Shown here piece by piece: positions 916 through 37,830 of a stretch of 64,000 nucleotides of DNA. This DNA is from Candidatus Latescibacterota bacterium (lineage in GTDB: Bacteria > Latescibacterota > UBA2968 > UBA8231). The stretch is taken from contig OZ241867.1 of the NCBI GenBank assembly GCA_965203175.1, positions 1,600,001-1,664,000 on the forward strand, given 5' to 3'. Under the pieces are notes generated by a model. That model saw nothing but the letters and a program-made list of their open reading frames with translations. It was not told the origin of the DNA and made no database searches. Within the stretch, counting starts at the first letter, position 1, and every line of letters starts with the position of its first letter. Position numbers and translations under genes: made by a program.

Positions 916-2487
916 ATGAACCAACCCAAGATCATGTACTACCACGACGGTCGGCATCCCCACATCTACCGCTACGAGCCGCCCATGGCCCCCGAGGAAT
1001 ACGTCGCCTTGGTCGATGAATTGGCCGGCACCACGGTCGAAGCCATCGCCTTCTGCTTGGGCGAGGGCCGCACCATGCTGCACGACACTCGGGCCAGCGA
1101 GTTGATGGGGCACAATGTCGAGGTCTGGGATCACTACGTCTTTCGCCGCGCTTGGCAAAACGCCAAGTCCCTCATCGACGCTGGCCACGATCCCTTGCGC
1201 TTGGTCTGCGACCGTGCCCACGAGTTGGGCATTCAGGTTTATCCCCTCCTGATCGTCCAGCGCGGCGGCGTTGACCACGCCTCGACGCGCTGCTCCAATT
1301 TCCGCATTGAGAACCAGCATCTCGAAATTGGCGCGGCTGGCGATCTCGACCCGGACTACCCCGGCTTAGACGGCCTCGACTTCAAGCACCCAGAGGTCCG
1401 CGACGAGCGCTTTGCCATTGTCGAAGAAGTGATGAGCGAGTATCCATCCGACGGCTTTGAACTACAGCTCAACCAAATGCCCTATTTCTTCCACCCCGAC
1501 GAAATCGACGCTGGCCGCACCCTGATGACCGACTGGATCGGTCGGGTCCACGAAGCAGTCAAACACAGCGGCACCGACAAAGAGCTGGTGGTGCATATTC
1601 CCGACCGCCTGGAAGATTGCGCCCGCGCCGGACTCGACCCAGAGGAATGGGTCAAACGGGGTCTAGTCGATGTGATCGTCGCGGAAAATTTCGGCGAGAA
1701 CTACCGCTTGAAAATGCAAGCCGACTACGCGGAATTCCTCGGCCTCACCCAAGGGACGCCCTGCCGCCTATTGGCCCCCCTAAACGGCATGGTTTTTTCC
1801 GACCGTCTGCTCGACGCACCCTTGTCCATGCTGCGGGCCGCGGCCTGCAATTTTTGGGATCAAGGCGTTGACGGCCTTTATGTTTCCGAGTGGTTCCACT
1901 TGTGGCCGTACGAGGCGTCCTTTTACGAAAAGCTCAGAGAGTTGCCCTACCCCAGCATTATGGCAGCCAAGGACAAATACTACTTCTTGCTCACTAACAC
2001 CCAAGACGGCCCCGCAGTCAGTCGGCCCAATCCGCTACCGCGTCAATTGGATCTGAACCAACCCGTCGAATTGGAATTGACCATTGCCGACGACTTGCAA
2101 AAATGGGGGGAGGCCGACCGCGTCCACGAAGTTTTGCTGCGCTTCCGCATTCACGGCAATGTCGAGACCGATCGCATCCAATTTGCGCTCAACGGCCAAA
2201 TTTTGCCCGACGACCTGCGGCGCAAGATCAATTCGCTCTACAACATGGACGGCCCGCGCTATCGGGTGATGGGCGGATACTGGCACATTTTCAAATTGGA
2301 CGCGGCCCACTGGCCGGTGCGGGGTAAAAACCGCATTGAAGTGACGCTGTTGGAGCGCGACGCGGATTTAGCCGATCCCTACTGCACCCTGACCGATGTC
2401 GAGTTGGAAACTAAGTACCTCAAGGGCAGGAATTTCCACCGCACTTATGTCGATCCAGACTTGGGACCTTCCGAGCACAAGGTGTAA
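916..2487 (+). CDS. Glycoside hydrolase-like TIM-barrel protein (GHL10/DUF187-like) with C-terminal beta domain
   Basis: 523 aa, RBS AAGGA. Motifs YYHDG, LDFKHPEVR, DGFEL, GVDGLY. Paralog of 13765..15378. Confidence 0.6.
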   Translation: MNQPKIMYYHDGRHPHIYRYEPPMAPEEYVALVDELAGTTVEAIAFCLGEGRTMLHDTRASELMGHNVEVWDHYVFRRAWQNAKSLIDAGHDPLRLVCDRAHELGIQVYPLLIVQRGGVDHASTRCSNFRIENQHLEIGAAGDLDPDYPGLDGLDFKHPEVRDERFAIVEEVMSEYPSDGFELQLNQMPYFFHPDEIDAGRTLMTDWIGRVHEAVKHSGTDKELVVHIPDRLEDCARAGLDPEEWVKRGLVDVIVAENFGENYRLKMQADYAEFLGLTQGTPCRLLAPLNGMVFSDRLLDAPLSMLRAAACNFWDQGVDGLYVSEWFHLWPYEASFYEKLRELPYPSIMAAKDKYYFLLTNTQDGPAVSRPNPLPRQLDLNQPVELELTIADDLQKWGEADRVHEVLLRFRIHGNVETDRIQFALNGQILPDDLRRKINSLYNMDGPRYRVMGGYWHIFKLDAAHWPVRGKNRIEVTLLERDADLADPYCTLTDVELETKYLKGRNFHRTYVDPDLGPSEHKV

Positions 2488-2576
2488 CGAGCGGGGCGGG
2501 TTTGCAGCGAAGAAAACCGGGGATTTTCAGTTTCTTAGAATTACTGCGATCCCATCCTACAGGGATTTCGTGTGGT

Positions 2577-2602
2577 CAAGGCACTAACACAAGGCACTGA
2601 CA
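2577..2602 (+). repeat. 13-bp tandem duplication at left edge of accessory islet
   Basis: caaggcactaaca / caaggcactgaca, 12/13 identical. Confidence 0.7.
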
Positions 2603-2618
2603 CGGCGACGGAACTAGC

Positions 2619-2882
2619 TTAATGCTCGGTGTCTTTGGGCGGATTGGGATCACGTCCTGGCGCAATCGTGTCCTTGCTTCTGATCTTGCCATTGACGCCT
2701 TTTGTGGTCAATTCGCCGCCACCTTGGTTTTGGAGCATCTGGCGTGCAGCCGCGTTAGCTGCCCGCTGGGTATCGTGCTTGCTTGACGCCCTTTCAGCGT
2801 CGTTTCGCTTGTTAATCCATTTGTCACCGCTCTTGTAGACGGTACGGTCTCTGCCCTTACCGCCACCTTTGCCTGTGCTCAT
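2619..2882 (-). CDS. DUF2188 domain-containing protein
   Basis: 87 aa. Pattern W.NKR...ERAS..HDTQ..A..AAR....GEL...G.NGKIRSKDT...DP.PP.D. ATGA overlap with the upstream gene. Confidence 0.8.
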   Translation of the reverse strand: MSTGKGGGKGRDRTVYKSGDKWINKRNDAERASSKHDTQRAANAAARQMLQNQGGGELTTKGVNGKIRSKDTIAPGRDPNPPKDTEH

Positions 2883-3898
2883 GTTTCAGTCTCCTTAGTT
2901 GAGGGTTCGGAAGCCATGCCTGCGGTCAGTTTTTCGATCAGTACCAGACAGTTGCAAACGGTAGCCGCCCGAATAACGAGACGCTGCCCGACGCGATATG
3001 TGGTGTCGCCGGTGCGGTCGATGTAGTCGGCGTCAACTATGCCCTGCGCGTGTGCGAGGAGATGACGCTGCTGAAAATAACATGTGAGTGTGTCGAGTTC
3101 GGCAGAAGTGAGGTAATCGCTGTATCGTCTGCCTGTGACCGCATGCCAGAGGTTGCTGCCTTCGGTAAGGTTTTGGAAGGCGTGGCGGCGTGGCGGCGAA
3201 GAGGACGGATACCTCGCATACAACGCCTCCGCGTAGCGTTGGAAGGCCATAACAGCGTGTTGCAGTCCGTTTTCGACAAGCAGCCGCGCAGTCGTCTCGG
3301 AGATGTCCCGATCGGAAATAGCTGTACGGATGCTATCGAGCTCATCGAGCGCGTTGCGAATGCTGGTGATGGACTGGTTGAACATCAGATCTACTGCGTT
3401 GTGTCCGCAGACAGGACAAAAGAAGGCTGCACCAATGACTGCATAGCGGCATTCGCATTTAGAGCAGATGATCTTGATCTGCATTGATTCCGCTGCGGTC
3501 GGTAGCGGAATAGGACGAGGACGACTATTCACGTTCATCGTCATGGTGATCAAGCTATTGCGGGGTTGTCGGCGATTCCACCGATCGGCGTCGCGCTTCA
3601 TGGCACGGTCGATACGGCGCTCTATATGAGACAAGGCAACCCTCTCCGCATGCTCGCGCTGTTCCTGAGTCTGCCATGCGTTGGAATCAGCCGTATAGCC
3701 GCAGAATGGGCAAAAGACTTCTTCATCGCGCACCTTGTCGCTCCAGTCGTCCTCGTGGATTTTGAACGAGAACTGACACTCGGACGACGGACACTGGCGG
3801 TCGAAGTACCCATCAGCATCCGAGGGTAGGGTTACGGTTACTGATATCTCGTGCCTGCCATCGAGGCGGTGCAACTCGCGTAGCAATTCGTCAAACAT
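2879..3898 (-). CDS. Double zinc-ribbon protein with C-terminal HEPN-like RNase domain (putative toxin/effector)
   Basis: 339 aa. Four Cys pairs (CPSSEC, CPFC, CSKC, CPVC). Helical C-terminal half with Rx4H motif RHLLAHAQGIVD. RBS GGAG. Confidence 0.65.
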   Translation of the reverse strand: MFDELLRELHRLDGRHEISVTVTLPSDADGYFDRQCPSSECQFSFKIHEDDWSDKVRDEEVFCPFCGYTADSNAWQTQEQREHAERVALSHIERRIDRAMKRDADRWNRRQPRNSLITMTMNVNSRPRPIPLPTAAESMQIKIICSKCECRYAVIGAAFFCPVCGHNAVDLMFNQSITSIRNALDELDSIRTAISDRDISETTARLLVENGLQHAVMAFQRYAEALYARYPSSSPPRRHAFQNLTEGSNLWHAVTGRRYSDYLTSAELDTLTCYFQQRHLLAHAQGIVDADYIDRTGDTTYRVGQRLVIRAATVCNCLVLIEKLTAGMASEPSTKETET

Positions 3899-3910
3899 CG
3901 AGTATCTCCA

Positions 3911-4783
3911 TCATCGCCTAAACCTCGGTTGCCAGGATTCTATCAGGGCTTCTTCTTCCTCAATCTCCTCGGGATCGGGCAGGTTGAGGGCAGTCAGGAC
4001 CGTAAGGGTTTTGCCGTATTTGCCAAGGCCAACTACTTCCTCAGTAATTTCGACGCTATGAGGTCCGTTAAACCAGTCCTGTAGATCGGACATGTCTTCG
4101 TCGTGGTCCGCGTCGCGGACACGATCCTCATCCTGATTAAAGGCAAATGTCTTGGTGTTTTTGGGGAGGGGATGGCGTTTGCGAATCCAGTCGAGGCCGT
4201 CCACTTCTTTCAGGGCATCAGACATGAAACAGTAGTCTATACGATCACCAATGCTTAGAACGATAGCTACGGGGTCACGGGTACATTGCGTATAACGGAT
4301 TGCGGTCGCGGTCCGGGAGGTCTGGCAAAGATCGGCTAAGAAGTCGATTGCAGCCAGTCCGTCGCCGGCGTCTCGCATGGCTTTGGTAAACAGGAAAGTC
4401 GGCATCAGGAGGCCTGCGGCAAAACGATCAGCTTCCATCTCGTAGCGGTCACCGGAAGTGAAATCAGCGCGTGATTGGTGGGAGCCGTTGACGAGTACGG
4501 CGTCGATATGGCCGGGCAGAAAGTAATGCCCGAGTTCGTGCGCGATACTGAAGTGCTGAAATCCGATGTTGTCAATATGGGTAGCATAAGCGATCCCGAA
4601 TTGGTCGCCGACACGCAGCAGCATACCGGAAACGCCAGGCACGCGGGTGGGTTTGGGGTAGACCTCGATGCCGAGACTTTGCGCCAAAGTGATTGGATCA
4701 ACGGGTAATGTGGTGATGCCGTGGTCCTTGACGACTTTCTCGCCGACGAGGGTGGCAAACCAGTAAGGATCGTTGTGGTTCAC
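3911..4783 (-). CDS. ImmA/IrrE (CapP-like) Zn metallo-endopeptidase
   Basis: 290 aa. FSIAHELGH (HExxH) and EMEADRFAAGLLMP. HTH-like middle and extra C-terminal domain as in IrrE/CapP. GTGA overlap with the XRE gene. Confidence 0.9.
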   Translation of the reverse strand: MNHNDPYWFATLVGEKVVKDHGITTLPVDPITLAQSLGIEVYPKPTRVPGVSGMLLRVGDQFGIAYATHIDNIGFQHFSIAHELGHYFLPGHIDAVLVNGSHQSRADFTSGDRYEMEADRFAAGLLMPTFLFTKAMRDAGDGLAAIDFLADLCQTSRTATAIRYTQCTRDPVAIVLSIGDRIDYCFMSDALKEVDGLDWIRKRHPLPKNTKTFAFNQDEDRVRDADHDEDMSDLQDWFNGPHSVEITEEVVGLGKYGKTLTVLTALNLPDPEEIEEEEALIESWQPRFRR

Positions 4784-5136
4784 TCGTCGGACTTTCGCTT
4801 GGTAGCCCTTTTGGAGAGGAGTTTGAGGAAATCCTCGGCAATGTCGCGGTCTTCGCTCGTCAACAGGTCAAAATGACGGTACAGCCTGTCAGCACCGGCC
4901 AACGCATCGGTATCGGTGACGCGACCGAGTAGGTAATCCGTGGTGACGTCGAGGGCGTCCGCTAGGCGGCGGAGATTATCGAAGGATGGCTTGCGAGCTC
5001 CGGTCTCGAAATGAGAAATAGCAGAGGCTTGCATGCCTGAGCGTTTTGCCAGTTCGCCTTGGCTAAGGTCTCGCTTCTCTCGGGCAGCGCGAAGGCGCTC
5101 GGGAAATCTACCGGTAATTGGGGTTGACTCTTCCAT
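4780..5136 (-). CDS. XRE-family HTH repressor (CapH/ImmR-like)
   Basis: 118 aa. RLRAARE..LSQGELA..SAISHFETGARKPS..LADALDVTTDYLLG, plus a short C-terminal helical domain. Confidence 0.92.
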   Translation of the reverse strand: MEESTPITGRFPERLRAAREKRDLSQGELAKRSGMQASAISHFETGARKPSFDNLRRLADALDVTTDYLLGRVTDTDALAGADRLYRHFDLLTSEDRDIAEDFLKLLSKRATKRKSDE

Positions 5137-5146
5137 GCGGATTCCG

Positions 5147-5232
5147 TATAGTCTTCTATAGACGTATTCGTAAACACCATTTTGGCCTTTTTTTGGCCCT
5201 TGGTGTAGACGAATTATTCATAATATATATGA
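5147..5232. promoter_or_regulatory. AT-rich divergent promoter/operator with 14-bp inverted repeat
   Basis: attcgtaaacacca (5166-5179) and tggtgtagacgaat (5201-5214) are 12/14 complementary. Also palindrome tatag-tctt-ctata (5147-5160) and cataatatatatg. Confidence 0.6.
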
Positions 5233-5261
5233 CGGTAACGGCAAGCACAAGGAGGAAAACC

Positions 5262-5675
5262 ATGGCCGCCAAGAGTTACATCCTTAACTTTAAGGGATAC
5301 TGGCCCGAACCCAATATCGCTGGTCTGCCCGCTGAGTCTGGCATCTATTGTGTCTATGCGTGTACAAACCACCCCAACGAGGTTCGGATCCGGAAGCTTC
5401 TATACATCGGCGAGTCGGATAATATCTGTGAGCGTGTGAAGGGACACGAGCGTTGGGACGACTGGAGGAGCGAGCTGCAACTCGGCGAGGTGCTATGTTT
5501 CAATGCTGCGCTGATCAGTCCGAAGTCGGATCGGGAGCGGGCGGAGGCAGCGATGATCTACGAGCATAAGCCACCTTGCAACGTCGAGTACGTGAATCAC
5601 TTTCCGTTTGACACGACTTCGATCCAGACCACGGGCAAGACCTGCCTGCTGAAAGCCCGCTTCACGGTGCCCTAG
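5262..5675 (+). CDS. Standalone GIY-YIG nuclease
   Basis: 137 aa from ATG after RBS GGAGG (the ORF-track start at 5118 is an extension). SGIY..LLYIGES..ERV..H..AEA..KPPCN. Confidence 0.85.
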   Translation: MAAKSYILNFKGYWPEPNIAGLPAESGIYCVYACTNHPNEVRIRKLLYIGESDNICERVKGHERWDDWRSELQLGEVLCFNAALISPKSDRERAEAAMIYEHKPPCNVEYVNHFPFDTTSIQTTGKTCLLKARFTVP

Positions 5676-5884
5676 ACCATGCGGCAAGGGCTGGGCTCGA
5701 CGCTACTCGGAGGTGGGCGGTGGACAAAGCGATGAACCGGGAGTATTGCAGTGCCATCATTCCCAAGATGATTACGCGGATTAAAATGTTATAGGCCAAT
5801 CCGGGCACGCCAAGTAGCACGATGCTGCTATGTATTAGGCACAAGATGAATATGCCGAACACCGCGCTGACGACCGTGCCGAGA
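5662..5884 (-). pseudogene. C-terminal fragment of an RbsC-type sugar ABC permease
   Basis: Reads LGTVVSAVFGIFILCLIHSSIVLLGVPGLAYNILIRVIILGMMAL, like the last two TM helices of RbsC permeases. No convincing start or RBS; abuts the racemase stop. Confidence 0.5.
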
Positions 5885-7126
5885 TCATCGCTCCAACACC
5901 GTCCCCTCCTCCACCAACCGCGCCATCATCTGAGCGAATTCAGGCGTGCCGTCGTCGTCCCAGTACTCGGTCTCAATGGGCGCGGCGTAGCTGTGTGGCA
6001 TCCCGCCCCGGGTCCAGTCGGGCCGGATCAGGAAATGGCGCGTCGTCAGGGGGTCGTATCTGTTGTACATGCGCGTCCCATTGGCGAATTGCGATTTGAC
6101 GATCCACGGCTTGATAGGCGGCAATTCCCGGCTCGCTAGCCGTTCCAACTCGTCGCGGTCCAAGGTCAAACCTAGGCCGGGTTTTTCCGGCACTCGAATG
6201 AGTCCGTTGACAGGCTCTAGGCGCTCGCTCACCACCTCGTCCTTGAGAATTTCGCTGCTGTCGACAAAGTGAAAGGTGGCGGAGGGAAAGGTCGCCATCA
6301 TGTGGCAGACCATGGCCCGGGTGATCGTGCCGCCCACGTTTTGCAACATGAACGGTATATTGCCAGCGGCGAACAAACCGGCGGCGCGGATTGCATCGCC
6401 AAATTTCTGGTGGCCGCGCATGTACACGTCTCCCGCCCCCATCAGCACCTCGTACGTGGCGTCCAGCGGCGCTTGATGGCGGACGATGGGCAGGGGAATG
6501 CGCCGGCGCAAGTCAATCGACGCCAAGGTGTCGCCGGCATTGATCGAATCTTCAAAGCAGCCGGCAATGGGATATTGGGCCAACTTAGCCAGCAGGTCCG
6601 GCATGTAGTCATCGGTGCCGCCGCCGGTGAAATCGTAGTGGATCTTGAACCCGGGCGGGGCCACGGCCTGCATGGCGTCGGTCTGATCGAAGACATTCTC
6701 AAAGGGCGACAGGTGGAACTTGAGCCAAGTGTAGCCTTGGGCGGCGTATTGTTCCACGGCCTCGGCCATGTGGCTGGGGGCGCTCGACACAGTCCAACTG
6801 CCCACCGGCACCCACGAGCGGTACTTCTGGCCGAAGAGCTTGTACACTGGCACGCCTACGGCTTGGCCCATCAAATCGTACATGGCCGTGCCCAGCCCGA
6901 TGGAGACTTCGTCTCCCATCCACTCGAAGGGGTTGCTACCCACATATTGGTCAATGACTTCCTGCGGCTCGGTGCGGCCGCTCTCGCCTAGGCCGATCAG
7001 ACCGGTATCGGTGTGGGCCACGTACACCGTGCGCCGGGTCACGCCTTGGTAGTGGCTGACCGGATAGGCGATCCAGTCTTGGTACTCTAGGCTGATTTCG
7101 TGTACTTCTATCTCAGTGACTTTCAC
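5885..7126 (-). CDS. Mandelate racemase/muconate lactonizing (enolase superfamily) protein, atypical active site
   Basis: MKVTEIEV, HTDTGLIGLGE, AMYDLMGQAVGVPVYKLFG, VPEKPGLGL. GTG start with RBS AAGGAGG. Confidence 0.85.
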   Translation of the reverse strand: MKVTEIEVHEISLEYQDWIAYPVSHYQGVTRRTVYVAHTDTGLIGLGESGRTEPQEVIDQYVGSNPFEWMGDEVSIGLGTAMYDLMGQAVGVPVYKLFGQKYRSWVPVGSWTVSSAPSHMAEAVEQYAAQGYTWLKFHLSPFENVFDQTDAMQAVAPPGFKIHYDFTGGGTDDYMPDLLAKLAQYPIAGCFEDSINAGDTLASIDLRRRIPLPIVRHQAPLDATYEVLMGAGDVYMRGHQKFGDAIRAAGLFAAGNIPFMLQNVGGTITRAMVCHMMATFPSATFHFVDSSEILKDEVVSERLEPVNGLIRVPEKPGLGLTLDRDELERLASRELPPIKPWIVKSQFANGTRMYNRYDPLTTRHFLIRPDWTRGGMPHSYAAPIETEYWDDDGTPEFAQMMARLVEEGTVLER

Positions 7127-7164: not shown

Positions 7165-10100
7165 TCAGTTTTTGACTGCGAAGAGAATTTTGTAGAGCAC
7201 TGGCACGAACAGCAAGGTGATCACAGTGGCAAAAAGCAAGCCCACCATGATGGCCACCGCCATCGGCTCCCACATCAACCCACCGCCCAAATAGAGAGGA
7301 ATAAGCCCCAGCGTCGTCGTGCAAGTGGTCAGCAAGATGGGACGAAAACGCTGTTGAGCTGCGGCGACGATCGCCTCTAGGGGGTTTTCCCCGGATTGGT
7401 TCAATTCGATTTGTATGCGGTCTATGAGCACGATCGCATTGTTGATGATGATACCGGCCAGCGCAATCAATCCGAGAAAGGCGAAAAAACCAAAGAACGA
7501 GCGGAAGACGAGCAATCCGGCAATGACCCCGATCAGACCGAGCGGAATGGTGCTCAGCACGATAAAGGTCTTGCGGAAGGAGTTGAACTGGACAATCAAC
7601 AACGCCAGAATGATAAAACCGGACAGCGGCAGCTTGGCGACGACCGCGCTCATAGCCTCGCTGCTCTGCTCCGACTCGCCGCCCAACTCGTAGCGATAGC
7701 CCCGCTTCCACGATTCGCTGTCTTCTTCGAGCCAAGGGATGAACTCGTCGGTGATGTCCTGCGCCGTAAAACCGCTTTTGGCATCGCAGGTCACAGTTAA
7801 GGTGCGGTACAGGTCGCGCCGTTTGATCTTGGCGAGTTGCCACTGAGGCACGATCTGCGCCACTTGTCCCAGCGGCACGTTTTTGCCCGAACCTTGGGCG
7901 TAGATGTTGATGCTCTCCAGTTGGCGCACATCCACATCCTGACTGCTTTCGTTGCGCAGGACAATGGGGAGACTCTGGTCGCCCTCGCGGAAAGCTCCCG
8001 TATTGAACCCCGTGAGCGCGGTCTGCAACGAAAGGGCGATATCCTGGTTGGTCAGGCCGGCATTCCGGGTCTTGGACTGGTCGATGTCAACGACGACTTT
8101 TTTGATCTTGGGGCCCCAATTGTCGCCGATATTCTGCGCAGTGGATATTTCGTTGAGTTTTTGCTTGATGCGCTCGGCGAGACCGAACAGTTCGTTGGGA
8201 TCCGGCCCTGTTATCCGCACGGCCACGTCACTGCCGCCTCCGCCTCCCGCCAACCGCGAAACTCGTATTTCGGCATCTGGAAAGGAGCGGAAGCAAAAGG
8301 CATCCAGACGGTCAATTACCCACTGGTTGTCGTCGCCCGAACTGGTATTGAGCAACATATGGGCGTACCCCGAGTTGGCTTCGCCCGACTGATAACCCTG
8401 GTCGTAGGAGGGCGGCCCCTCGCTGACAAAGGTCGCCCAGTCCGTTACCCCGCGCTGGCGGTTTTTGCTCACCAAAAGGCTATCCGCGATATACGACTCG
8501 AGCCGTTCCACCCGGGCAGTCGTCGTCTCGATCTTGGTCCCTAAGGGCAAATTTAGATTTACCGTCAACAGATTGCGCTCGCTGTCGGGAAAGAAGATGA
8601 ACGGCAAAAAACCAAAGCCGAAAAGCGACAATACAAACAAACCAGCGATGATCCCCATAAATGAATAGGGGCGACCAAGGGCCTTGAGGAGTAGCTCTCT
8701 ATACTGGCTGTTGAGACGATCGATAAAAGTGCTTTTCTCGGACTGAGAGGTCTGCTGTTTCACCCGGATGAAAAACACCGCCAACAACGTGATCATGGTC
8801 AGGGAGAGCAACCAGGAAGAGAGCAGGGCTATGGTAATCACGCTGAACAGCGGCCCCATCATCTCGCCCATGATGGACGCGGCCAGAAAGAAGGACAAGA
8901 ACGCGGCTGAAGTGGTCAGCGAAGAGACTAGAAGCGGTACGGCTAGCTCCCGAGCCGATTCGATGGCCGCCTCTTTGGCGTCGGTGCCCTTTTCCATTTT
9001 GACCACAATCGCTTCGGACACCACGATGGCATTATCCACCAACATGCCCAGCGCCATGATCAGGGCCGCCAACGACACCTGATTGAGACCGATATCGAGC
9101 ACGCCCATGATGAAAAGGGTCGCGATAATGGTCATGGGAATGAGGCTGGCCACCACTAGGCCGGTGCGCAGTCCCAAAAAGATCAGCATGGACAACAGCA
9201 CGATAGCGACGCTTTGCAAGAGATTGTTGGTGAAATTGGCGACCGATTTCTCTACCTCAAAATCTTGGGAGGCCACTCTGTTGAAGGTTATTCCTATAGG
9301 TAGCCGCGCTTGGTAGAGGGCTACGAGTTGGTCAATTTCCTCACCCAACTTGATGATATTGGCCCCTTCGCTGAGCGCCACCGAGAGCGACAGCCCCGGC
9401 TGACCGTTGATTTTGACCAAGCGCTGCTGGGGCGTTTCATAGGCCCGCACGATGCGGGTTACATCGCCGAGGTACACGCTCCCGTCCTTGCCCACCGAGA
9501 TCAACGTCCTCCCCAGATCGTCTAGGTCGGCGTAACTGCCGGTCGGTTCGAGCACTAAGCGTTCATCCTCTAAGCTGACCTCGCCGCCAGAGAAAACGAT
9601 GTTAGTACTGGCGATGCTGTTCTTGATCTTCTGCGCCGAGAGGCCCAACTCGGCCAGCCGGGCGTCGTTGAATTGCAGGTATATCCGCTCCTCTTGGATG
9701 CCGCTTATTTTTACCTCGGCAGCGTCGGGTAGCTTGATGAGGTCGTCGCGCAGGTCTTTGGCGTAGGTCTCGAGTTCGGCAAAGGTGAAACCATCCCCTG
9801 TCAGGCCGATCACAATGCCGTACACCACCCCGATCCCATCGTCATTGACCTTGGGGCCGTAGATGCCCTCGGGCAGGTCCGAGCGGATGGTCTCAATTTT
9901 GCGGCGCAATCGGTCCCATACGGCTTGGAGTTCTTCTGGAGGTACTTCCTGTTTGAGTGCTACCGACACTACCGATAGCCCGGTCCGCGATTCACTAGTG
10001 ACAGTTTTCAGCTCGGGCAACTCTTGCGCGACTTCTTCAATCTTGCTGGTGATCAGGGCTTCGACTCGCTGGGGACCGGCACCGGGAAAGCTAGTCACCA

Positions 10101-10239
10101 CTGAGGCGACGCGGATCGTGTACGGGGGCATACTGTCGCGTGGCATCGTCTGATAGCCGACCAAGCCCAGCAGCACAACGACGATCAAGACCACGACGGT
10201 GACGCGGTTGTTTTCTAGGGCGATTTGGGTGAGGTTCAT
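7165..10239 (-). CDS. RND efflux permease (AcrB/AcrD/AcrF family)
   Basis: 1024 aa. FPGAGPQRVE, GMLVDNAIVV, RFRPILLT, 12-TM architecture. Confidence 0.95.
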   Translation of the reverse strand: MNLTQIALENNRVTVVVLIVVVLLGLVGYQTMPRDSMPPYTIRVASVVTSFPGAGPQRVEALITSKIEEVAQELPELKTVTSESRTGLSVVSVALKQEVPPEELQAVWDRLRRKIETIRSDLPEGIYGPKVNDDGIGVVYGIVIGLTGDGFTFAELETYAKDLRDDLIKLPDAAEVKISGIQEERIYLQFNDARLAELGLSAQKIKNSIASTNIVFSGGEVSLEDERLVLEPTGSYADLDDLGRTLISVGKDGSVYLGDVTRIVRAYETPQQRLVKINGQPGLSLSVALSEGANIIKLGEEIDQLVALYQARLPIGITFNRVASQDFEVEKSVANFTNNLLQSVAIVLLSMLIFLGLRTGLVVASLIPMTIIATLFIMGVLDIGLNQVSLAALIMALGMLVDNAIVVSEAIVVKMEKGTDAKEAAIESARELAVPLLVSSLTTSAAFLSFFLAASIMGEMMGPLFSVITIALLSSWLLSLTMITLLAVFFIRVKQQTSQSEKSTFIDRLNSQYRELLLKALGRPYSFMGIIAGLFVLSLFGFGFLPFIFFPDSERNLLTVNLNLPLGTKIETTTARVERLESYIADSLLVSKNRQRGVTDWATFVSEGPPSYDQGYQSGEANSGYAHMLLNTSSGDDNQWVIDRLDAFCFRSFPDAEIRVSRLAGGGGGSDVAVRITGPDPNELFGLAERIKQKLNEISTAQNIGDNWGPKIKKVVVDIDQSKTRNAGLTNQDIALSLQTALTGFNTGAFREGDQSLPIVLRNESSQDVDVRQLESINIYAQGSGKNVPLGQVAQIVPQWQLAKIKRRDLYRTLTVTCDAKSGFTAQDITDEFIPWLEEDSESWKRGYRYELGGESEQSSEAMSAVVAKLPLSGFIILALLIVQFNSFRKTFIVLSTIPLGLIGVIAGLLVFRSFFGFFAFLGLIALAGIIINNAIVLIDRIQIELNQSGENPLEAIVAAAQQRFRPILLTTCTTTLGLIPLYLGGGLMWEPMAVAIMVGLLFATVITLLFVPVLYKILFAVKN

Positions 10240-10246
10240 AGGCGTC

Positions 10247-11356
10247 TCACTCTTGCAAAAGGCGCACTTGCATCCCGTTCAAGAGCGATCTGAGGCCCGC
10301 GGTCGCGACCAACTCCCGGTCGGCGAGCCCCTCTTCCACGACAAAACCGTCTGCCAACAGTTTGCCGATGCGAATCGACCGACGATGGACCGTCCCCAAG
10401 CCCTTGGCGACCTCATCAATGACAAAGACATATTGGCCGTTGGCATCTTCCCCTACCGCTTTAACGGGCACCACGAGCGGATCCTCCGAAGGCTCGCCGG
10501 TGCCAAAGCGAAACTCCACCTCGCCGGCCATACCGGGCCGAATGGATGGGGAAGGAGCGTCGAGTTGCACAACGACCGGATACGTGCTAGAGGCGTCGAG
10601 CGCGTATGCTATCTCGCGCACTTGGGCGGCAAAATCTAGTCCGGGCAGAGCGGAAAAACGCACGCGCACTGGCTGTCCGGTCTGGATTTGGGCGATATAG
10701 CCCTCGGGCACCCCTACCTCCATTTCGATGTCCTCGCCCGCGCTCAACTCCACCAAGGGCGCGCCGGCTTGGATCACTTCGTTGACCTCGTTGTGGACTG
10801 CGGTGACTATGCCAGCGACAGGGGCGTATATCTCATTGTATCCTAGCTGGCGCTCCTGCAAATCCAAACTCTTCTGGGCCGATTCGTAACTGGATGTGGC
10901 CGAGGCAAAGCCGTTTTTGGCCTGTTCGTACTCGGCGAGGGAGACATTGTTGGCCTCGTAGAGCTGCCGCACGCGAATGAGCCTAGACTGGGCATTGGCC
11001 TTTTGCACGCGGGCATTTTCTAGCGCGGCCTTGGCCCGTTGATGCGCGAGAACTGCATCCCGGCTATCGAGCGCGGCAATGCGCTGACCCGCTCCGACTT
11101 GGTCGCCCACCTTTACGCTGATCGATTCGATAAGCCCACCCGTTCTGAAGCTGAGCTTGGCTTCGACGCCAGCTTTGGCAGTGCCGGCAAAACGCTGGCT
11201 CTGGACGGCACTGGCGGGACGGACTTCGGCGTATTTTACCGGGCGAATGGGTTCGGCGACCTGTGGTTCACCGCCGCAGCCAACCCACAGGCCCATCGCC
11301 GCCAGAAAAACCCCGGCAGCTTCGCAATTCCGCTTTGGCATGATACCTCGCTTCAT
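10247..11356 (-). CDS. RND periplasmic adaptor (membrane fusion protein)
   Basis: Lipobox-like LWVGC. SFRTGG, VKVGDQV, IYAPVAG, IRPGM. ATGA overlap with tolC. Confidence 0.93.
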   Translation of the reverse strand: MKRGIMPKRNCEAAGVFLAAMGLWVGCGGEPQVAEPIRPVKYAEVRPASAVQSQRFAGTAKAGVEAKLSFRTGGLIESISVKVGDQVGAGQRIAALDSRDAVLAHQRAKAALENARVQKANAQSRLIRVRQLYEANNVSLAEYEQAKNGFASATSSYESAQKSLDLQERQLGYNEIYAPVAGIVTAVHNEVNEVIQAGAPLVELSAGEDIEMEVGVPEGYIAQIQTGQPVRVRFSALPGLDFAAQVREIAYALDASSTYPVVVQLDAPSPSIRPGMAGEVEFRFGTGEPSEDPLVVPVKAVGEDANGQYVFVIDEVAKGLGTVHRRSIRIGKLLADGFVVEEGLADRELVATAGLRSLLNGMQVRLLQE

Positions 11357-13734
11357 GGTGCATTTTTTCTTTTGGCGAAGAAGGCCGTCAAGCGCCCGAC
11401 AAAGGCCTCCTGCTCCTCTGAAGTCATGAACATGGTGTAGCCCCCGATGCTGTTTTCCAACTGCAGATAGCTGACCAAGTATTCATAGACGGCTCCAGCT
11501 TCGGCCTGACGGGCGGAAAGGGCGGCGCGTTGGGCATCCACCAGTTGGGTGATTGCCAGTTGGCCCTTCTGGTACGCGTCCTGCACCAGTTCAAAGTTCT
11601 TTTGCGCGCTTGCAGCGGCCACCTCGGCAAAGTGTATGTTGGTGCGCTTGGATACCAAGTTCGTCATCCGCACCCGGACGGCCTGGGAGAGTTGCTGGCG
11701 CAAACTCTCCTCTTGGAGGTGAAGCTGCTGCTGCTGAATCGCAGTTTGGTCGATGGCGATCTTGCGCTGGTTGCCCTGAAAGAGGGGATAGGCGAAGTGG
11801 AGGGCCAAGTTCCAAGTGCCGTTGACAGGATCGGGGGAGGCCGGCGGCATTCCCTTGCCAGCGCGCCAGAAGGTGTAGTCGGCCTGTCCGCGCAAAGCCA
11901 CTGTAGGCAGGTAGTACAGCCGGCGGTTCATCTGTTGCTGGCGTTCGGCTACTTTCATATTGGCCGCTAGCTGCTTGAGCGAAGGCATGTTTTGCAGGGC
12001 CTCTGCGACGAGAAAGTCGGTCAGAATCTCCACATCGCCGGCCCGGTCGATCAGAGGACCGATGCGGGCTGGGTCAAAGCGGCCAAAAAGTTCGTCGGAG
12101 AGCCGGGCATCCTCCACCTCGAACTCCTCGCCAATATCCGTCCGATTGAGCAAGCGGTTGAGTTGCACTTTGGCTAAGTAGAGGTTGTTGAAAGCCTCAA
12201 TCGAGGCTTGGGTGGCCCGAGCCACTTCGCTCTCCCAGCGGAATACGTCGGCCACGCCGGCATAGCCGACGGCATTGCGGGTACGGGCGATCTTCAGGTT
12301 GCGGCGCGAGACCTCGAGATTCTCATCTTGAATGCGCACCCCGGTCTTGGCCAGCAGGATATTGAAATAGGCCGTCGCCAAGTTCAGCACCACGTCGAGC
12401 GCAACCAGATCGGCGCGATGGCGGGTGGCCTCGGCTAGGTACTGCTGGATTTTGACGTTGGCAAAGACCTGCTCGGAAAACAGTACCTGTTGCACGGTAC
12501 CCGTACCCGCGCCGGTGCGCTCGGGCTGTTGACCAAAAGCGCGCTCGGCGACATCTGGGTCCACTTGCAACAGGGTGGTCGAGGTTTCTACAGTGGGCAG
12601 GAGAGACGATTTAGCTCGGCGCATATCTTGGCCGGCCAAATCGACGTTGCGCTTTTCAATGCGCAGGTCGAGGTTGCTCTGCAAGCCTTCGGCGATAACC
12701 TCCTGCAAGCTCAAGCGTCGATCGCTAATGGGTTCGTCGGCCTTGAGGAAGCGGGCGGAAAACAGCGCTTCAAACGAGAGGTCGAAATCGATTCGGCGGA
12801 TTGTTGCGGCATTCAGCACCCATTGCTCGTCGAGATTGTGCCGCACGGGCATTGCCGCCAGTTCCTCGCCCAGCGCGACTCCCTCGACGATCAGGGCCAG
12901 CTTGCGGAAAATCTGGTCTCGGCCGCTCTCGTCGCCGATACAGGCCATTATTCCCGCATCCACATAAGACCGGCTCATGGCAAAGGAAGGCAGCTTGCGC
13001 TCGGCGAGGGACTCAGCCAGTAGGCCGACCTCCTCGGGTGAGCGCTCGAAAACCACCGCCAGATAGACCGCGTCAACCGCTTCGCTCAGCGCTGGGAGCG
13101 GCGCTTCCTTTCCCCAAAAAACCAACTCCACCTGGGCCCCGTAAGGCGCTGCAAGGCGTTCGAAGAAACCCGCGAAATCCAGCTTGCCTTTCAGGTTTTC
13201 ACTAATGATGACAGCTAGGTGAGCAAAGGGATGGATCCGGTGGAACGCCGCTAAGTCCTTTTGGATCGAGTGGGTACTGAGGACGTAGGTAAAATTGCGC
13301 ACTCCAGAGACGCCAGGCTCGACGAGGGGCATTTGCTGTAATTCCACGTCCAGTATCCCCACGGCGATCGTCGGTTTGGGTAAGGCACCTTGGCCAGCTA
13401 GCATCGCGGCACTGGCCGGCCCGGCGGCAATGATCAGATCGACCGCGGGGTCGTTGGCTAGGGACAGATAGTCTGCGTGCTCAGCGGAGAAACGCATGTG
13501 CTCGGGGAGGAAATGGACCGACGTATCGACCCCTAGCACCTTGTGGATTTCCTCCTGCAGGAGCGCCAACTCACTCCCTGCATCGGTTGCCTCGGGCCCA
13601 AAATCGAGCAATAGACCGATATAGAGGTCGCTCTTTTCAATTTGGGCATGCGTCGGTAGTACTAAGCCCATGACCAAAACGGCGGATATAGCTATTCCCA
13701 GCATCGAGTGGTCCACTCCAATGGGTTCGAGCAA
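11353..13734 (-). CDS. TolC-family outer-membrane channel with N-terminal ABC substrate-binding-like domain
   Basis: 793 aa. Signal peptide, then ~310-aa periplasmic-binding-like region (DLIIAAG, DAVYL, LPSF, PV..WVLNAATIRRI), then two OEP repeats (LSLQEVI..NLDL, YQKGQLAITQLVDAQ). True start may be the downstream ATG. Confidence 0.85.
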   Translation of the reverse strand: MLEPIGVDHSMLGIAISAVLVMGLVLPTHAQIEKSDLYIGLLLDFGPEATDAGSELALLQEEIHKVLGVDTSVHFLPEHMRFSAEHADYLSLANDPAVDLIIAAGPASAAMLAGQGALPKPTIAVGILDVELQQMPLVEPGVSGVRNFTYVLSTHSIQKDLAAFHRIHPFAHLAVIISENLKGKLDFAGFFERLAAPYGAQVELVFWGKEAPLPALSEAVDAVYLAVVFERSPEEVGLLAESLAERKLPSFAMSRSYVDAGIMACIGDESGRDQIFRKLALIVEGVALGEELAAMPVRHNLDEQWVLNAATIRRIDFDLSFEALFSARFLKADEPISDRRLSLQEVIAEGLQSNLDLRIEKRNVDLAGQDMRRAKSSLLPTVETSTTLLQVDPDVAERAFGQQPERTGAGTGTVQQVLFSEQVFANVKIQQYLAEATRHRADLVALDVVLNLATAYFNILLAKTGVRIQDENLEVSRRNLKIARTRNAVGYAGVADVFRWESEVARATQASIEAFNNLYLAKVQLNRLLNRTDIGEEFEVEDARLSDELFGRFDPARIGPLIDRAGDVEILTDFLVAEALQNMPSLKQLAANMKVAERQQQMNRRLYYLPTVALRGQADYTFWRAGKGMPPASPDPVNGTWNLALHFAYPLFQGNQRKIAIDQTAIQQQQLHLQEESLRQQLSQAVRVRMTNLVSKRTNIHFAEVAAASAQKNFELVQDAYQKGQLAITQLVDAQRAALSARQAEAGAVYEYLVSYLQLENSIGGYTMFMTSEEQEAFVGRLTAFFAKRKNAP

Positions 13735-37743: not shown

Positions 37744-37830
37744 TGGTGCCGGAGGTGGGACTCGAACCCACACACCCTTGCGGATACAGGATTTTGAATC
37801 CAGCGCGTCTACCAATTCCGCCACTCCGGC
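37744..37830 (-). tRNA. tRNA-Leu(CAA)
   Basis: GCCGGAG acceptor stem, D-loop GGAATTGGTAGAC, anticodon loop TTCAAAA, long variable arm, GTTCGAGTCC, encoded CCA. Confidence 0.97.

Follow-up and report, generated by a model that had tools for sequence, protein, structure and literature searches.

The closest described systems are the CBASS and immune operons regulated by CapH and CapP, an XRE repressor and an M78 peptidase whose mechanism is described in Lau et al. 2022 (10.1101/2022.04.27.489752) and Calloji et al. 2026 (10.64898/2026.05.16.725639). According to Lau et al. 2022, capH and capP are located upstream of the operon that they control and face away from it, and the legend to Fig. 6F presents CapH/CapP-associated DUF2188 operons, citing Burroughs & Aravind 2020, with the cargo on the opposite strand. 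An operon of Extensimonas perlucida in the same source comprises CapP, CapH, two hypothetical proteins and DUF2188. Three-component modules of Xre, COG2856 protease and nuclease-toxin are predicted in Makarova et al. 2009 (PMC2701414), and in RosmerTA the antitoxin is a Zn-peptidase that is paired with toxins of various kinds (Millman et al. 2022 preprint; Ernits et al. 2023, PMC10440598).

The five-gene block considered here occupies positions 2619 to 5675 of the window, the whole 64-kb stretch of DNA analysed. It shares with the CapH/CapP operons an XRE repressor and an M78 peptidase with an HExxH motif and a long C-terminal part, together with an AT-rich divergent spacer bearing palindromic boxes, conserved with that of the CBASS-controlling locus L051. 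It differs from them in the absence of a cysteine switch and of a CD-NTase, none having been matched in the block by PADLOC, as the sequence-only reading had claimed. Its cargo is co-directional with capP and 3' of it rather than divergent, and the sole divergent gene encodes a small GIY-YIG nuclease. The same difference in strand separates it from the DUF2188 operons, with which it shares CapH, CapP and DUF2188 in the company of hypothetical proteins. With RosmerTA and the Xre-COG2856 modules it has in common an HTH and Zn-peptidase element beside a predicted nuclease-type toxin, whereas its regulator is split, not fused, and is far closer to capH/capP than to RmrA. The block had been proposed as undescribed. 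That is overstated in view of the DUF2188 operons in Lau et al. 2022 and of two PADLOC candidates, PDC-M14A and PDC-S16.

Gene organisation and the CapH/CapP-type regulator

The sequence-only reading had placed all five ORFs correctly, together with both overlaps, the gap of 12 nt and the spacer of 125 nt:

2619..2882, minus strand: DUF2188 gene, 87 aa
2879..3898, minus strand: Zn-ribbon/HEPN-like gene, 339 aa, predicted effector
3899..3910, minus strand: junction of capP and the Zn-ribbon gene, 12 nt, containing GGAG, with TGGAG directly 3' of the capP stop
3911..4783, minus strand: peptidase gene (capP), 290 aa, GTG start
4526..4540, minus strand: HELGH (HExxH) active-site motif of CapP, residues 82-86
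4780..5136, minus strand: XRE HTH gene (capH), 118 aa
5118..5675, plus strand: GIY-YIG-like ORF, likely gene 5262..5675, 137 aa, divergent from capH

The coupling of the four minus-strand genes was read directly from the letters. The capP start overlaps the capH stop at GTGA (tcac at 4780-4783), and the DUF2188 start overlaps the stop of the 339-aa gene at ATGA (tcat at 2879-2882). No terminator-like site was found in the junction at 3899..3910. It is predicted from this arrangement that capH-capP, followed by the Zn-ribbon/HEPN-like gene and DUF2188, form one transcript and the GIY-YIG gene another. The G+C content of the block is 0.548, against 0.598 for the window. Its surroundings, claimed to be purely catabolic, are so only in part: a scan of 12 large ORFs from 1 to 21.5 kb of the window matched an enolase-superfamily enzyme, a lactonase, a BNR protein and an alpha/beta hydrolase, but a three-gene RND efflux operon lies at 7165-13734 and five ORFs gave no match. 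No mobile-element genes were found among the 12.

The product of capH matched Pfam HTH_3 (2.5e-17) and the PADLOC capH model over essentially its full length (1.9e-25, profile positions 4-100 of 103). In the PDB it matched phage and ICE repressors, as well as the CapH chain 7t5u_A at 1.5e-4. CapP matched Pfam Peptidase_M78 at 1.1e-11, identifying an ImmA/IrrE-type Zn-metallopeptidase, and PADLOC capP at 2.5e-63 (positions 8-240 of 242, full length). Its sole PDB sequence match was 7t5t_A, 'CapP' (1.7e-7), with whose HELGH motif its own aligns. These matches support the assignment of the pair as a CapH/CapP-type switch, in agreement with the HTH and HExxH-peptidase switch originally claimed. 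The only cysteines of this CapP are at residues 153, 167 and 185, and alignment to the solved CapP places none of them at the switch loop, so its dependence on ssDNA may differ.

The likely start of the divergent gene is the ATG at 5262, preceded by AGGAGG. Its GIY-YIG match (E=0.038) is below the Pfam cut-off and its NCBIfam matches are weak (uvrC, 0.028). Nevertheless, it has 369 homologous clusters, and G27, Y29, Y48, G50, E51, R58, H62, E95 and N107, residues of catalytic type, are invariant in all 15 aligned members. Homologues on plasmids, named 'GIY-YIG nuclease family protein' by NCBI, stand alone. The claim of a small nuclease gene diverging from the same spacer is supported: GIY-YIG-like here, and HNH in the related locus L033. 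The gene occupies the place at which Lau et al. 2022 put the regulated operon. By this divergent-operon rule the regulated gene would be the GIY-YIG gene, and the HEPN-like gene a mere passenger of an autoregulated transcript.

The spacer between the two genes is AT-rich, as proposed, and contains the following:

5137..5261, no strand: candidate divergent promoter/operator spacer, 125 nt, GC 0.408 against the 0.598 of the window
5142..5152, minus strand: ACTATACGGAA box adjoining the capH start, conserved in L033 and L051
5166..5214, no strand: 14-nt inverted repeat, arms 5166-5179 and 5201-5214, 86% complementary

The spacers of the window, L033 and L051 share collinear conserved blocks. In the 64 kb of the window the ACTATACGGAA box has a single occurrence, where 0.02 would be expected. 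The arms of the inverted repeat enclose a GGCC-A7-GGCC hairpin, and an ACG-N4-CGT box in the arm recurs in both other spacers. The repeat is a candidate CapH operator. A promoter scan yielded a sigma-70-like site at 5124-5152 on the plus strand with 10 of 12 matches, but sites were no more numerous than in shuffles.

The Zn-ribbon/HEPN-like protein

A search with the 339-aa protein gave 1029 homologous clusters at E<=1e-3, and no Pfam domain is present in any of them. An AlphaFold2 model of the whole protein had a pLDDT of 79.7. It divides as follows:

3398..3847, minus strand: N-terminal domain with two CxxC...CxxC Zn ribbons, residues 18-167, PADLOC PDC-M14A at 3.3e-20
2894..3397, minus strand: C-terminal all-helical HEPN-like domain, residues 168-335
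3050..3067, minus strand: RHLLAH, the R278-x4-H283 motif, residues 278-283

In the N-terminal domain C36, C63, C66, C145, C148, C161 and C164 were invariant and C41 nearly so among 24 aligned sequences. The PDC-M14A match is confined to residues 18-167, and PDC-M14 is a candidate system, not validated; a full-text search for 'PDC-M14' found no paper. On an Arthrobacter plasmid this domain also forms an ORF of its own, beside a TIR gene of the CAP12/Pycsar type. No PADLOC model matched the HEPN-like half.

The model of the C-terminal domain was of higher confidence (pLDDT 94.5, pTM 0.89), and a search with a profile of the domain gave 1527 representative clusters. The best 11 Foldseek matches in the PDB were all HEPN toxins of HEPN/MNT pairs (among them 7ae6, 7ae2, 7ae8, 5yep_C and 7bxo; probability 0.91-0.99), the only consistent fold match, and a search with the whole protein agreed. 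TM-scores were 0.38-0.61, with query-normalised values below 0.5, at 9-14% sequence identity and rmsd of 6-7.7 A; E-values were 0.05-0.3, none reaching 1e-3. The toxins possess R-x4-H at a similar relative position, as judged from the mutants R102A and H107A named in PDB titles. R278 and H283 were invariant in 24 of 24 aligned sequences, and R278, H279 and H283 in 36 of 36, down to 30% identity. No HEPN sequence profile matched the protein, and none of the 36 C-terminal domains fell below E=0.1 with the HEPN Pfam models. Of the Zn-ribbon HEPN protein originally claimed, the ribbons and the invariant motif are borne out, while the HEPN assignment, which rests on RHLLAH and the fold matches, is plausible without being statistically secure. 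The protein further differs from HEPN/MNT toxins in having no MNT partner and an additional 165-residue double Zn-ribbon domain.

Genomic contexts of the family and proposed role

Neighbourhoods were compared for 80 loci, from 80 genomes, carrying a gene of the 339-aa family. Restriction-modification (RM), CBASS, RosmerTA, Gabija, Kiwa, Thoeris, Abi or TA genes were present within two genes in approximately 40 of the 80 by hand tally, which supports a location of the family in defence islands; mobile-element genes were also among the neighbours. The gene lies within or appended to RM operons in L015, L018-L022, L034, L044 and L054. PrrC and RloC, the anticodon nucleases of Type I RM loci, offer a parallel for such an HEPN-type RNase gene, although the 339-aa protein has no ABC-ATPase domain. 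A DNA-damage repair module of the IrrE/DdrO kind, in which a damage-induced GIY-YIG protein and an RNA-processing or nucleic-acid-binding Zn-ribbon protein would serve repair and recovery rather than phage defence or suicide, would accommodate the IrrE-like lack of a cysteine switch, the use of a GIY-YIG fold by UvrC as well and the insecure HEPN call. It is made very improbable by these defence and mobile, not repair, neighbours, by a scattered occurrence, across phyla and also on conjugative plasmids, that fits an accessory defence gene, and by the closest plasmid relatives of the regulator pair (~65% DNA identity), which control a CBASS operon.

The five genes did not occur together in any of the 80 loci, so a dedicated five-gene system, as first envisaged, is not upheld. 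The GIY-YIG gene was found in none, DUF2188 in seven, and a protease-type regulator in 14, leaving 66 without one; capH-capP lay directly upstream of the Zn-ribbon gene in L033 only. On these figures the cargo does not require the CapH/CapP switch. It may be that the modules are merely juxtaposed: CapH/CapP would control the GIY-YIG gene alone, or be the orphan of a lost operon, co-transcription would be functionally meaningless, the HEPN-like gene would be complete in itself, a one-gene defence or a selfish gene that tends to settle at the 3' end of other operons, and DUF2188 would be an unrelated third gene. Consistent with this, no partner is conserved (the largest cluster among 870 neighbour ORFs is found in 8 of 80 loci), and the Zn-ribbon gene lies at short distance behind genes as different as Type ISP, IIG, Type I RM, RosmerTA, CBASS, PifA and PLD, following PifA or a PLD nuclease on plasmids. 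Identities of 60-70% between members from different phyla point to frequent transfer, and the divergent orientation described in Lau et al. 2022 also favours this reading. Against it, L033 has capH-capP, a 12-nt junction starting TGGAG, the Zn-ribbon gene and the divergent HNH nuclease, and the junction has been kept even though the two CapP proteins are only 54% identical over 276 residues (CapH, 58%), supporting translational coupling of the 339-aa gene to capP in both. Protease-type regulators required 11 changes among 14 labelled rows of the tree; their association with the family arose many times. With the cargo pair also found behind a second kind of damage-responsive repressor in a sister clade, mere juxtaposition appears unlikely.

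The loci concerned are among L002, L004 and L006, with which the window groups on the tree (SH-aLRT 95) and in all of which DUF2188 occupies the same overlapped downstream position. In L002 and L004 the gene upstream of the Zn-ribbon and DUF2188 pair encodes an S24 peptidase matching lambda CI at 2.1e-14. The cassette is modular: its cargo pair is placed behind a putative self-cleaving repressor in sister lineages, and the HEPN-like gene is more often found closing other defence operons that have no such switch. In lambda cI-rexAB abortive-infection cargo is co-transcribed with a cleavable repressor, as is predicted for the window, which differs in having no prophage context.

Complete RmrT-RmrA pairs stand directly upstream of the Zn-ribbon gene in L007, L028 and L073, where an RmrT is already provided for the fused regulator. 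This weighs against a three-component addiction module of the Xre-COG2856-toxin or RosmerTA kind, in which a constitutive HEPN-like toxin would be held by CapH/CapP or DUF2188 as antitoxin, chiefly for island stabilisation and not damage sensing. Such modules are predicted in Makarova et al. 2009, RosmerTA offers the example of a Zn-peptidase antitoxin paired with various toxins, the best fold matches are to TA-type HEPN toxins, and translation of DUF2188 is coupled to that of the HEPN-like gene. However, the RmrA matches of the regulator pair (2.6e-14 and 9.7e-9) are weaker than those to capH and capP, no RmrT was found when sought in the block, and in most of the family DUF2188 and a peptidase are both missing from the vicinity, as would hardly be expected of an obligate antitoxin; the module is considered quite improbable. 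DUF2188 (Pfam 2.2e-17; PADLOC PDC-S16 3.5e-17, a candidate system, not validated) directly adjoins the regulator in L013 and L051, as its first neighbour, and comes after a fused one in L007 and L086, and so appears to accompany the regulator module more than the HEPN-like gene.

We lean, with modest confidence, towards a defence-island cassette built around the CapH/CapP switch, with the HEPN-like protein as main cargo and both divergent promoters regulated. By homology to characterised CapH/CapP, CapH dimers bound to the palindromic boxes of the spacer would repress the two promoters; ssDNA arising from DNA damage or phage replication would activate the CapP metallopeptidase, and cleavage of CapH would free both. 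The C-terminal domain of the 339-aa protein may then act as a HEPN-type metal-independent RNase through R278 and H283, and the protein, once abundant, would halt translation and bring about growth arrest or abortive infection. The double Zn-ribbon domain, paired elsewhere in trans with a TIR effector, might be a sensor or regulatory module, and DUF2188 an accessory of the regulator and cargo. The genes would thus constitute a modular, probably damage-induced cassette for defence.

Organisation of the locus and its regulatory switch

The block at window positions 2619-5675 consisted of four closely spaced genes on the minus strand and a fifth, divergent gene on the plus strand, a layout present exactly as the sequence-only reading had claimed:

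4780-5136, minus: capH-like HTH gene
3911-4783, minus: M78 peptidase gene (capP)
2879-3898, minus: gene for a 339-aa Zn-ribbon protein
2619-2882, minus: DUF2188 gene
5262-5675, plus: GIY-YIG-like gene; the ATG at 5262, behind AGGAGG, is the most likely start

The capH and peptidase genes overlap by GTGA, a 12-nt gap containing GGAG separates the peptidase gene from the 339-aa gene, and the latter overlaps DUF2188 by ATGA. The start at 5262 leaves a spacer of 125 nt with a GC content of 0.408, compared with 0.548 for the block and 0.598 for the window. Neither direct repeats nor an integrase nor a nearby tRNA was found at the block borders, the sole tRNA found lying at 37744, and a search of window positions 2300-6000 against Rfam gave no matches at E≤0.1. 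Catabolic-looking enzymes do surround the block, but the neighbourhood is not purely catabolic as had been stated, since an RND efflux operon of three genes (AcrB-type pump, HlyD-type adaptor and outer-membrane factor; 7165-13734) lies 1.5 kb away.

The XRE-type HTH protein gave a full-length match to the PADLOC capH model (1.9e-25; residues 8-109 on positions 4-100 of 103) and matched Pfam HTH_3 at 2.5e-17. The peptidase matched capP at 2.5e-63. In the CapP family, C-terminal HTH and GAF domains form the ssDNA groove; here the profile match ends at residue 264, on profile position 240 of 242. CapP 7t5t was the only solved structure matched by its sequence (1.7e-7). The pairwise alignment ends at residue 200; both HELGH (residues 82-86), the HExxH of the M78 Zn-peptidase, and the Glu of EMEAD align with 7t5t_A, the latter with the third-ligand Glu. 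A cysteine-switch loop was absent: cysteines occur only at 153, 167 and 185, with none between HELGH and the Glu ligand, and the same stretch lacks cysteine in the CapP of L033, the one locus among 80 genome loci with relatives of the 339-aa gene in which capH-capP lies directly upstream of that gene. The accessible text of a 2026 CapP preprint (10.64898/2026.05.16.725639) describes the cysteine switch as not universal, some homologues and IrrE also lacking it. Judged by its sequence, the pair falls within the CapH/CapP family, minus this one non-universal feature.

RosmerTA was considered as an alternative identity for the pair. Its regulator, RmrA, is a fused HTH-peptidase, whereas the regulator in the window is split, and the RmrA models scored 9.7e-9 and 2.6e-14 against 2.5e-63 for capP and 1.9e-25 for capH; no match to RmrT was obtained with PADLOC among the five block proteins. 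CBASS was likewise rejected for the block, as neither the five proteins nor 12 flanking ORFs (Pfam) yielded a cyclase or CBASS effector match. The absence of a CD-NTase, previously read from the sequence, thus held.

In the arrangement described in the accessible part of Lau et al. 2022 (10.1101/2022.04.27.489752), capH/capP sit upstream of, and divergent from, the operon under their control. In the window the GIY-YIG gene (5262-5675) diverges from capH/capP, and the larger cargo is co-directional and downstream of capP. The spacer, oriented towards capH, was aligned with those of L033 and of L051, a CapH/CapP-controlled CBASS locus (CapH proteins 49-58% identical). Collinear blocks were conserved among the three: an ACG-N4-CGT box, a central GC hairpin with an A-run, and ACTATACGGAA adjoining the capH start. 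A single copy of the ACTATACGGAA box is present in the window (0.02 expected), and a 14-nt inverted repeat flanks the hairpin there (arms 5166-5179 and 5201-5214). These elements probably represent operators and promoter elements.

The 339-aa protein and its companions

The 339-aa protein belongs to a family of 1029 clusters (90% identity; E≤1e-3, over the range of lengths covered by the search); no cluster has a Pfam domain. Near-invariant or invariant in 24 aligned members were four Cys pairs, making up two Zn ribbons, together with R205, E209 and FQQRHLLAH. Within the last, RHLLAH (residues 278-283) is an R-x4-H motif of the HEPN-type R-x4-6-H catalytic form; it was invariant in 24/24 and 36/36 aligned sequences, with R278, H279 and H283 retained in 36 C-domains down to 30% identity. 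AlphaFold2 modelled the whole protein with a pLDDT of 79.7 and the C-domain alone with 94.5. In Foldseek searches of the PDB both models agreed: the toxins of HEPN/MNT pairs came top, with a probability of 0.91-1.0, E of 0.04-0.3 and TM of about 0.4-0.6. For the C-domain model the 11 best matches were without exception HEPN toxins (probability 0.91-0.99, E 0.05-0.3, TM 0.38-0.48 by query length or 0.44-0.61 by target length). Neither model gave any match at E≤1e-3. No HEPN sequence profile was matched by the whole protein (Pfam/NCBIfam, E≤1), one of the 36 C-domains matched HEPN_RiboL-PSP (E=0.21), and there was no match to PDB sequences for the protein or the C-domains. An Atlas search returned unnamed clusters and one 0.77 lead to HEPN_RiboL-PSP. 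The HEPN label given earlier is therefore favoured by the invariant motif and the fold, but finds no counterpart in sequence profiles or in fold matches at E≤1e-3; the best reading is of a predicted, not proven, HEPN-like RNase. The C-domain family comprises 1527 representative clusters.

Residues 18-167, the N-domain, gave a match to PDC-M14A, a PADLOC candidate. PADLOC scans of the block proteins and of the neighbour ORFs scanned gave no match to the PDC-M14 B component, and full-text searches of open-access papers and preprints returned no mention of PDC-M14. On an Arthrobacter plasmid (NZ_AP024654.1; L083:3094-4474) the Zn-ribbon domain stands alone as a 158-aa PDC-M14A ORF, missing from the plasmid's gene table, that overlaps the end of a CAP12/Pycsar-type TIR gene. 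This separate occurrence suggests that the N-domain may be a sensor or regulatory module able to serve different effectors.

Some relatives are longer: a C-terminal extension of approximately 190 residues was seen in P0248, P0302, P0321, P0357, P0362, P0367 and P0378 (about 500-530 aa) and at L057:5734-7584, the extensions forming at least two groups, each related among themselves. At L073:6001-6789, L030:2042-2965 and L077:257-1309 the tblastn match falls in two pieces, which suggests frameshifted or decayed copies; that of L073 sits between RosmerTA and Kiwa.

The block DUF2188 protein matched Pfam PF09954 with 63.4 bits (cut-off 22) and nothing useful among PDB sequences. Elsewhere, DUF2188 directly follows a fused regulator in L007 and on a Methylocaldum plasmid (L086), and in L013 and L051 it is the first gene of the divergent operon, of which the Zn-ribbon gene is the last. 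It adjoins the regulator in all four, and appears to serve as an accessory to the regulatory module, not as a partner specific to the HEPN-like protein. The plasmid copy, 78% identical in DNA to that of the window, lies in a one-strand array (NZ_OX458334.1; L086:2470-6899) of a hypothetical gene, a 370-aa XRE regulator, DUF2188, Vsr, a cytosine methyltransferase and a 252-aa GIY-YIG nuclease.

The divergent gene product scored below the gathering cut-off of the Pfam GIY-YIG model (14.7 against 22.6 bits, E=0.038) and matched nothing useful among PDB sequences. Catalytic-type residues of GIY-YIG nucleases follow the order GIY...YIG...R...E...N; G27, Y29, Y48, G50, E51, R58, H62, E95 and N107 were invariant in 15/15 relatives, and the spacing from GIY to YIG is longer than is typical. 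Homologues on plasmids were stand-alone, with no HTH or peptidase neighbour. A weak hint of co-occurrence with the 339-aa gene is that the two match lists share two longest-contig values (4341 and 35159).

Distribution of the family and exchange of regulators

A genome scan yielded 80 of 90 confirmed loci, from many phyla, and these 80 were searched with the five window proteins (tblastn, E≤1e-3). CapH was found in six (L013, L024, L026, L029, L033, L051), CapP in ten, several matches being weak, and DUF2188 in six, with a seventh, L051, through Pfam. GIY-YIG was found in 0/80 and capH-capP directly upstream of the Zn-ribbon gene only in L033, so that the proposal of a self-contained five-gene system was not upheld. 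L033 repeats the capH-capP pair, the 12-nt TGGAG junction and the Zn-ribbon gene of the window; an HNH nuclease replaces GIY-YIG as the first divergent gene, followed by an E1-like gene.

Among operon-like neighbours, 80 ORFs were scanned with Pfam and 72 of these with PADLOC also, together with selected further ORFs; 244 of 270 second-shell ORFs were scanned with Pfam, the other 26 being mostly from near-duplicate loci or short overlapping ORFs. The immediate partners were very diverse; by a hand tally, about 40 of the 80 loci have a gene identifiable as defence, RM or TA no more than two genes away.

Partners of the 339-aa family gene
Type ISP/IIG RM: L015, L018-L020, L022
Type I HsdS: L034, L044, L054
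ResIII: L021
Complete RosmerTA pair: L007, L028, L073
CBASS: L019, L051; SAVED in L024, L026, L029; S_4TM in L055
Gabija GajA: L028
Kiwa: L073
Thoeris ThsA: L056
Ubiquitin-like E1 system: L013, L033
Others: AbiJ/Abi_C, PIN, Mrr, HNH, Schlafen, TIR; transposases, integrases, anti-restriction genes

In the 76 loci with a called family gene, a co-directional gene lay within 50 nt upstream in 32 and downstream in 24. In 18 plasmid records the family gene lies behind PifA or a PLD nuclease, with a transposase after it; no homologue was found in a phage collection of 50,697 records.

Several individual loci merit description. In a Limisphaerales MAG (L051:3002-7011), divergent capH and capP face DUF2188, a CD-NTase (SMODS), a 2TM effector and the Zn-ribbon/HEPN-like gene, in that order; a CapH/CapP-controlled CBASS is thus bracketed by the two accessory genes of the window. 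Ubiquitin-like operons (Multi_ubiq, DUF6791-ThiF E1-like, DUF6527) stand under HTH/M78 regulators at L013:2521-7005 and L033:2811-4632, that of L013 with DUF2188 first and the Zn-ribbon gene last. Rahnella sp. PCH160 carries identical family-gene copies at both ends of one 4.86-Mb contig (L067:3547-8451, L068:1781-5611), directly preceded by a D5/Toprim primase-helicase gene and followed by an IS3-type transposase. The arrangement may stem from overlapping ends of a circular assembly and from a satellite-like element.

Protease-type repressor systems were present in 14 of the 80 loci.

Protease-type regulators at family loci
Split CapH/CapP-like: L013, L024, L026, L029, L033, L034, L051
capP-like peptidase, no HTH partner detected: L049
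Fused HTH-M78: L007, L028, L037, L073
Lambda-CI-like S24: L002, L004

A family tree of 67 members was built, omitting ten loci with a gene outside 300-420 aa and four without a called gene. The protease-regulator label changed 11 times among 14 labelled rows (shuffles: mean 13.0, 35 of 500 as low); regulator association is therefore scattered over the tree and not one inherited block. The window clade (SH-aLRT 95) contains L005, L002, L004 and L006, the last three with an overlapped downstream DUF2188 as in the window. Upstream of this cargo pair, L002 and L004 have a CI-like S24 repressor; the upstream ORF of L006 matched nothing in the PDB. Two damage-responsive repressor types, CapH/CapP and CI-like S24, thus front one cargo pair within one clade, which, on comparative sequence grounds, is the strongest argument for damage-induced expression.

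Proposed mechanism and significance

The order and coupling of the genes, their motifs and the conserved blocks of the spacer are established from the sequence. For the regulator, the accessible parts of Lau et al. 2022 (10.1101/2022.04.27.489752) and of 10.64898/2026.05.16.725639 describe a cycle in which CapH represses, ssDNA activates CapP, CapP cleaves CapH and the operon is induced. In the window CapH would control both divergent promoters. As part of the autoregulated capH transcript, the cargo would be expected to be expressed weakly at rest and in a burst after damage. The HEPN-like protein would then act as an RNase effector whose level decides growth arrest, with the Zn-ribbon domain as a putative second layer of control and the GIY-YIG nuclease as a second, DNA-directed cargo. 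A wider scheme is possible, although we consider it somewhat doubtful: the Zn-ribbon/HEPN-like protein would be a portable "last-gene" RNase effector backing up varied defence operons (RM, CBASS, RosmerTA, PifA), which, with DUF2188, would in one clade have been captured on two or more occasions by distinct protease/repressor switches that sense DNA damage (CapH/CapP in the window, CI-like S24 in L002 and L004). The outcome would be a minimal abortive system that has no phage sensor of its own and makes a suicidal RNase in amounts dictated solely by the damage signal.

The locus had been put forward as a candidate undescribed system. The family and the co-directional arrangement do appear new, but CapH/CapP-linked DUF2188 operons were already reported by Lau et al. 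2022, whose accessible text includes one with two hypothetical proteins, from Extensimonas perlucida (Fig. 6F; 10.1101/2022.04.27.489752). A nuclease toxin gated by a protease was conceived as early as Makarova et al. 2009 (PMC2701414), and RosmerTA embodies the concept (Millman et al. 2022 preprint; Ernits et al. 2023, PMC10440598). No description of the 339-aa family was found in open-access papers and preprints. In the accessible portions of the literature HEPN, zinc ribbon and defense island came together only for CoCoNuT and NLR, and the relevant passages of Ernits et al. 2023 (PMC10440598) showed no pairing of HEPN with ImmA. What appears new is the effector family itself, the co-directional fusion of an effector gene to the capH-capP transcript, and the swap between CapH/CapP and CI-like control.

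After DNA damage, CapH/CapP-type switches increase the expression of CBASS and further immune operons (10.1101/2022.04.27.489752; 10.64898/2026.05.16.725639), and why only some defence genes carry such wiring is a question posed in the accessible text of the latter. The window locus is a stripped-down case in which the switch is accompanied by one predicted RNase, DUF2188 and a small nuclease, and it is therefore easy to test there whether induction alone suffices to kill or protect. The block lends itself well to experiment, and the 339-aa family is large and unannotated, spanning many phyla and conjugative plasmids without a Pfam model and repeatedly coupled to known defence operons. A function for the family would annotate thousands of genes, and DUF2188, recurrent beside protease-type regulators, would gain a testable context.
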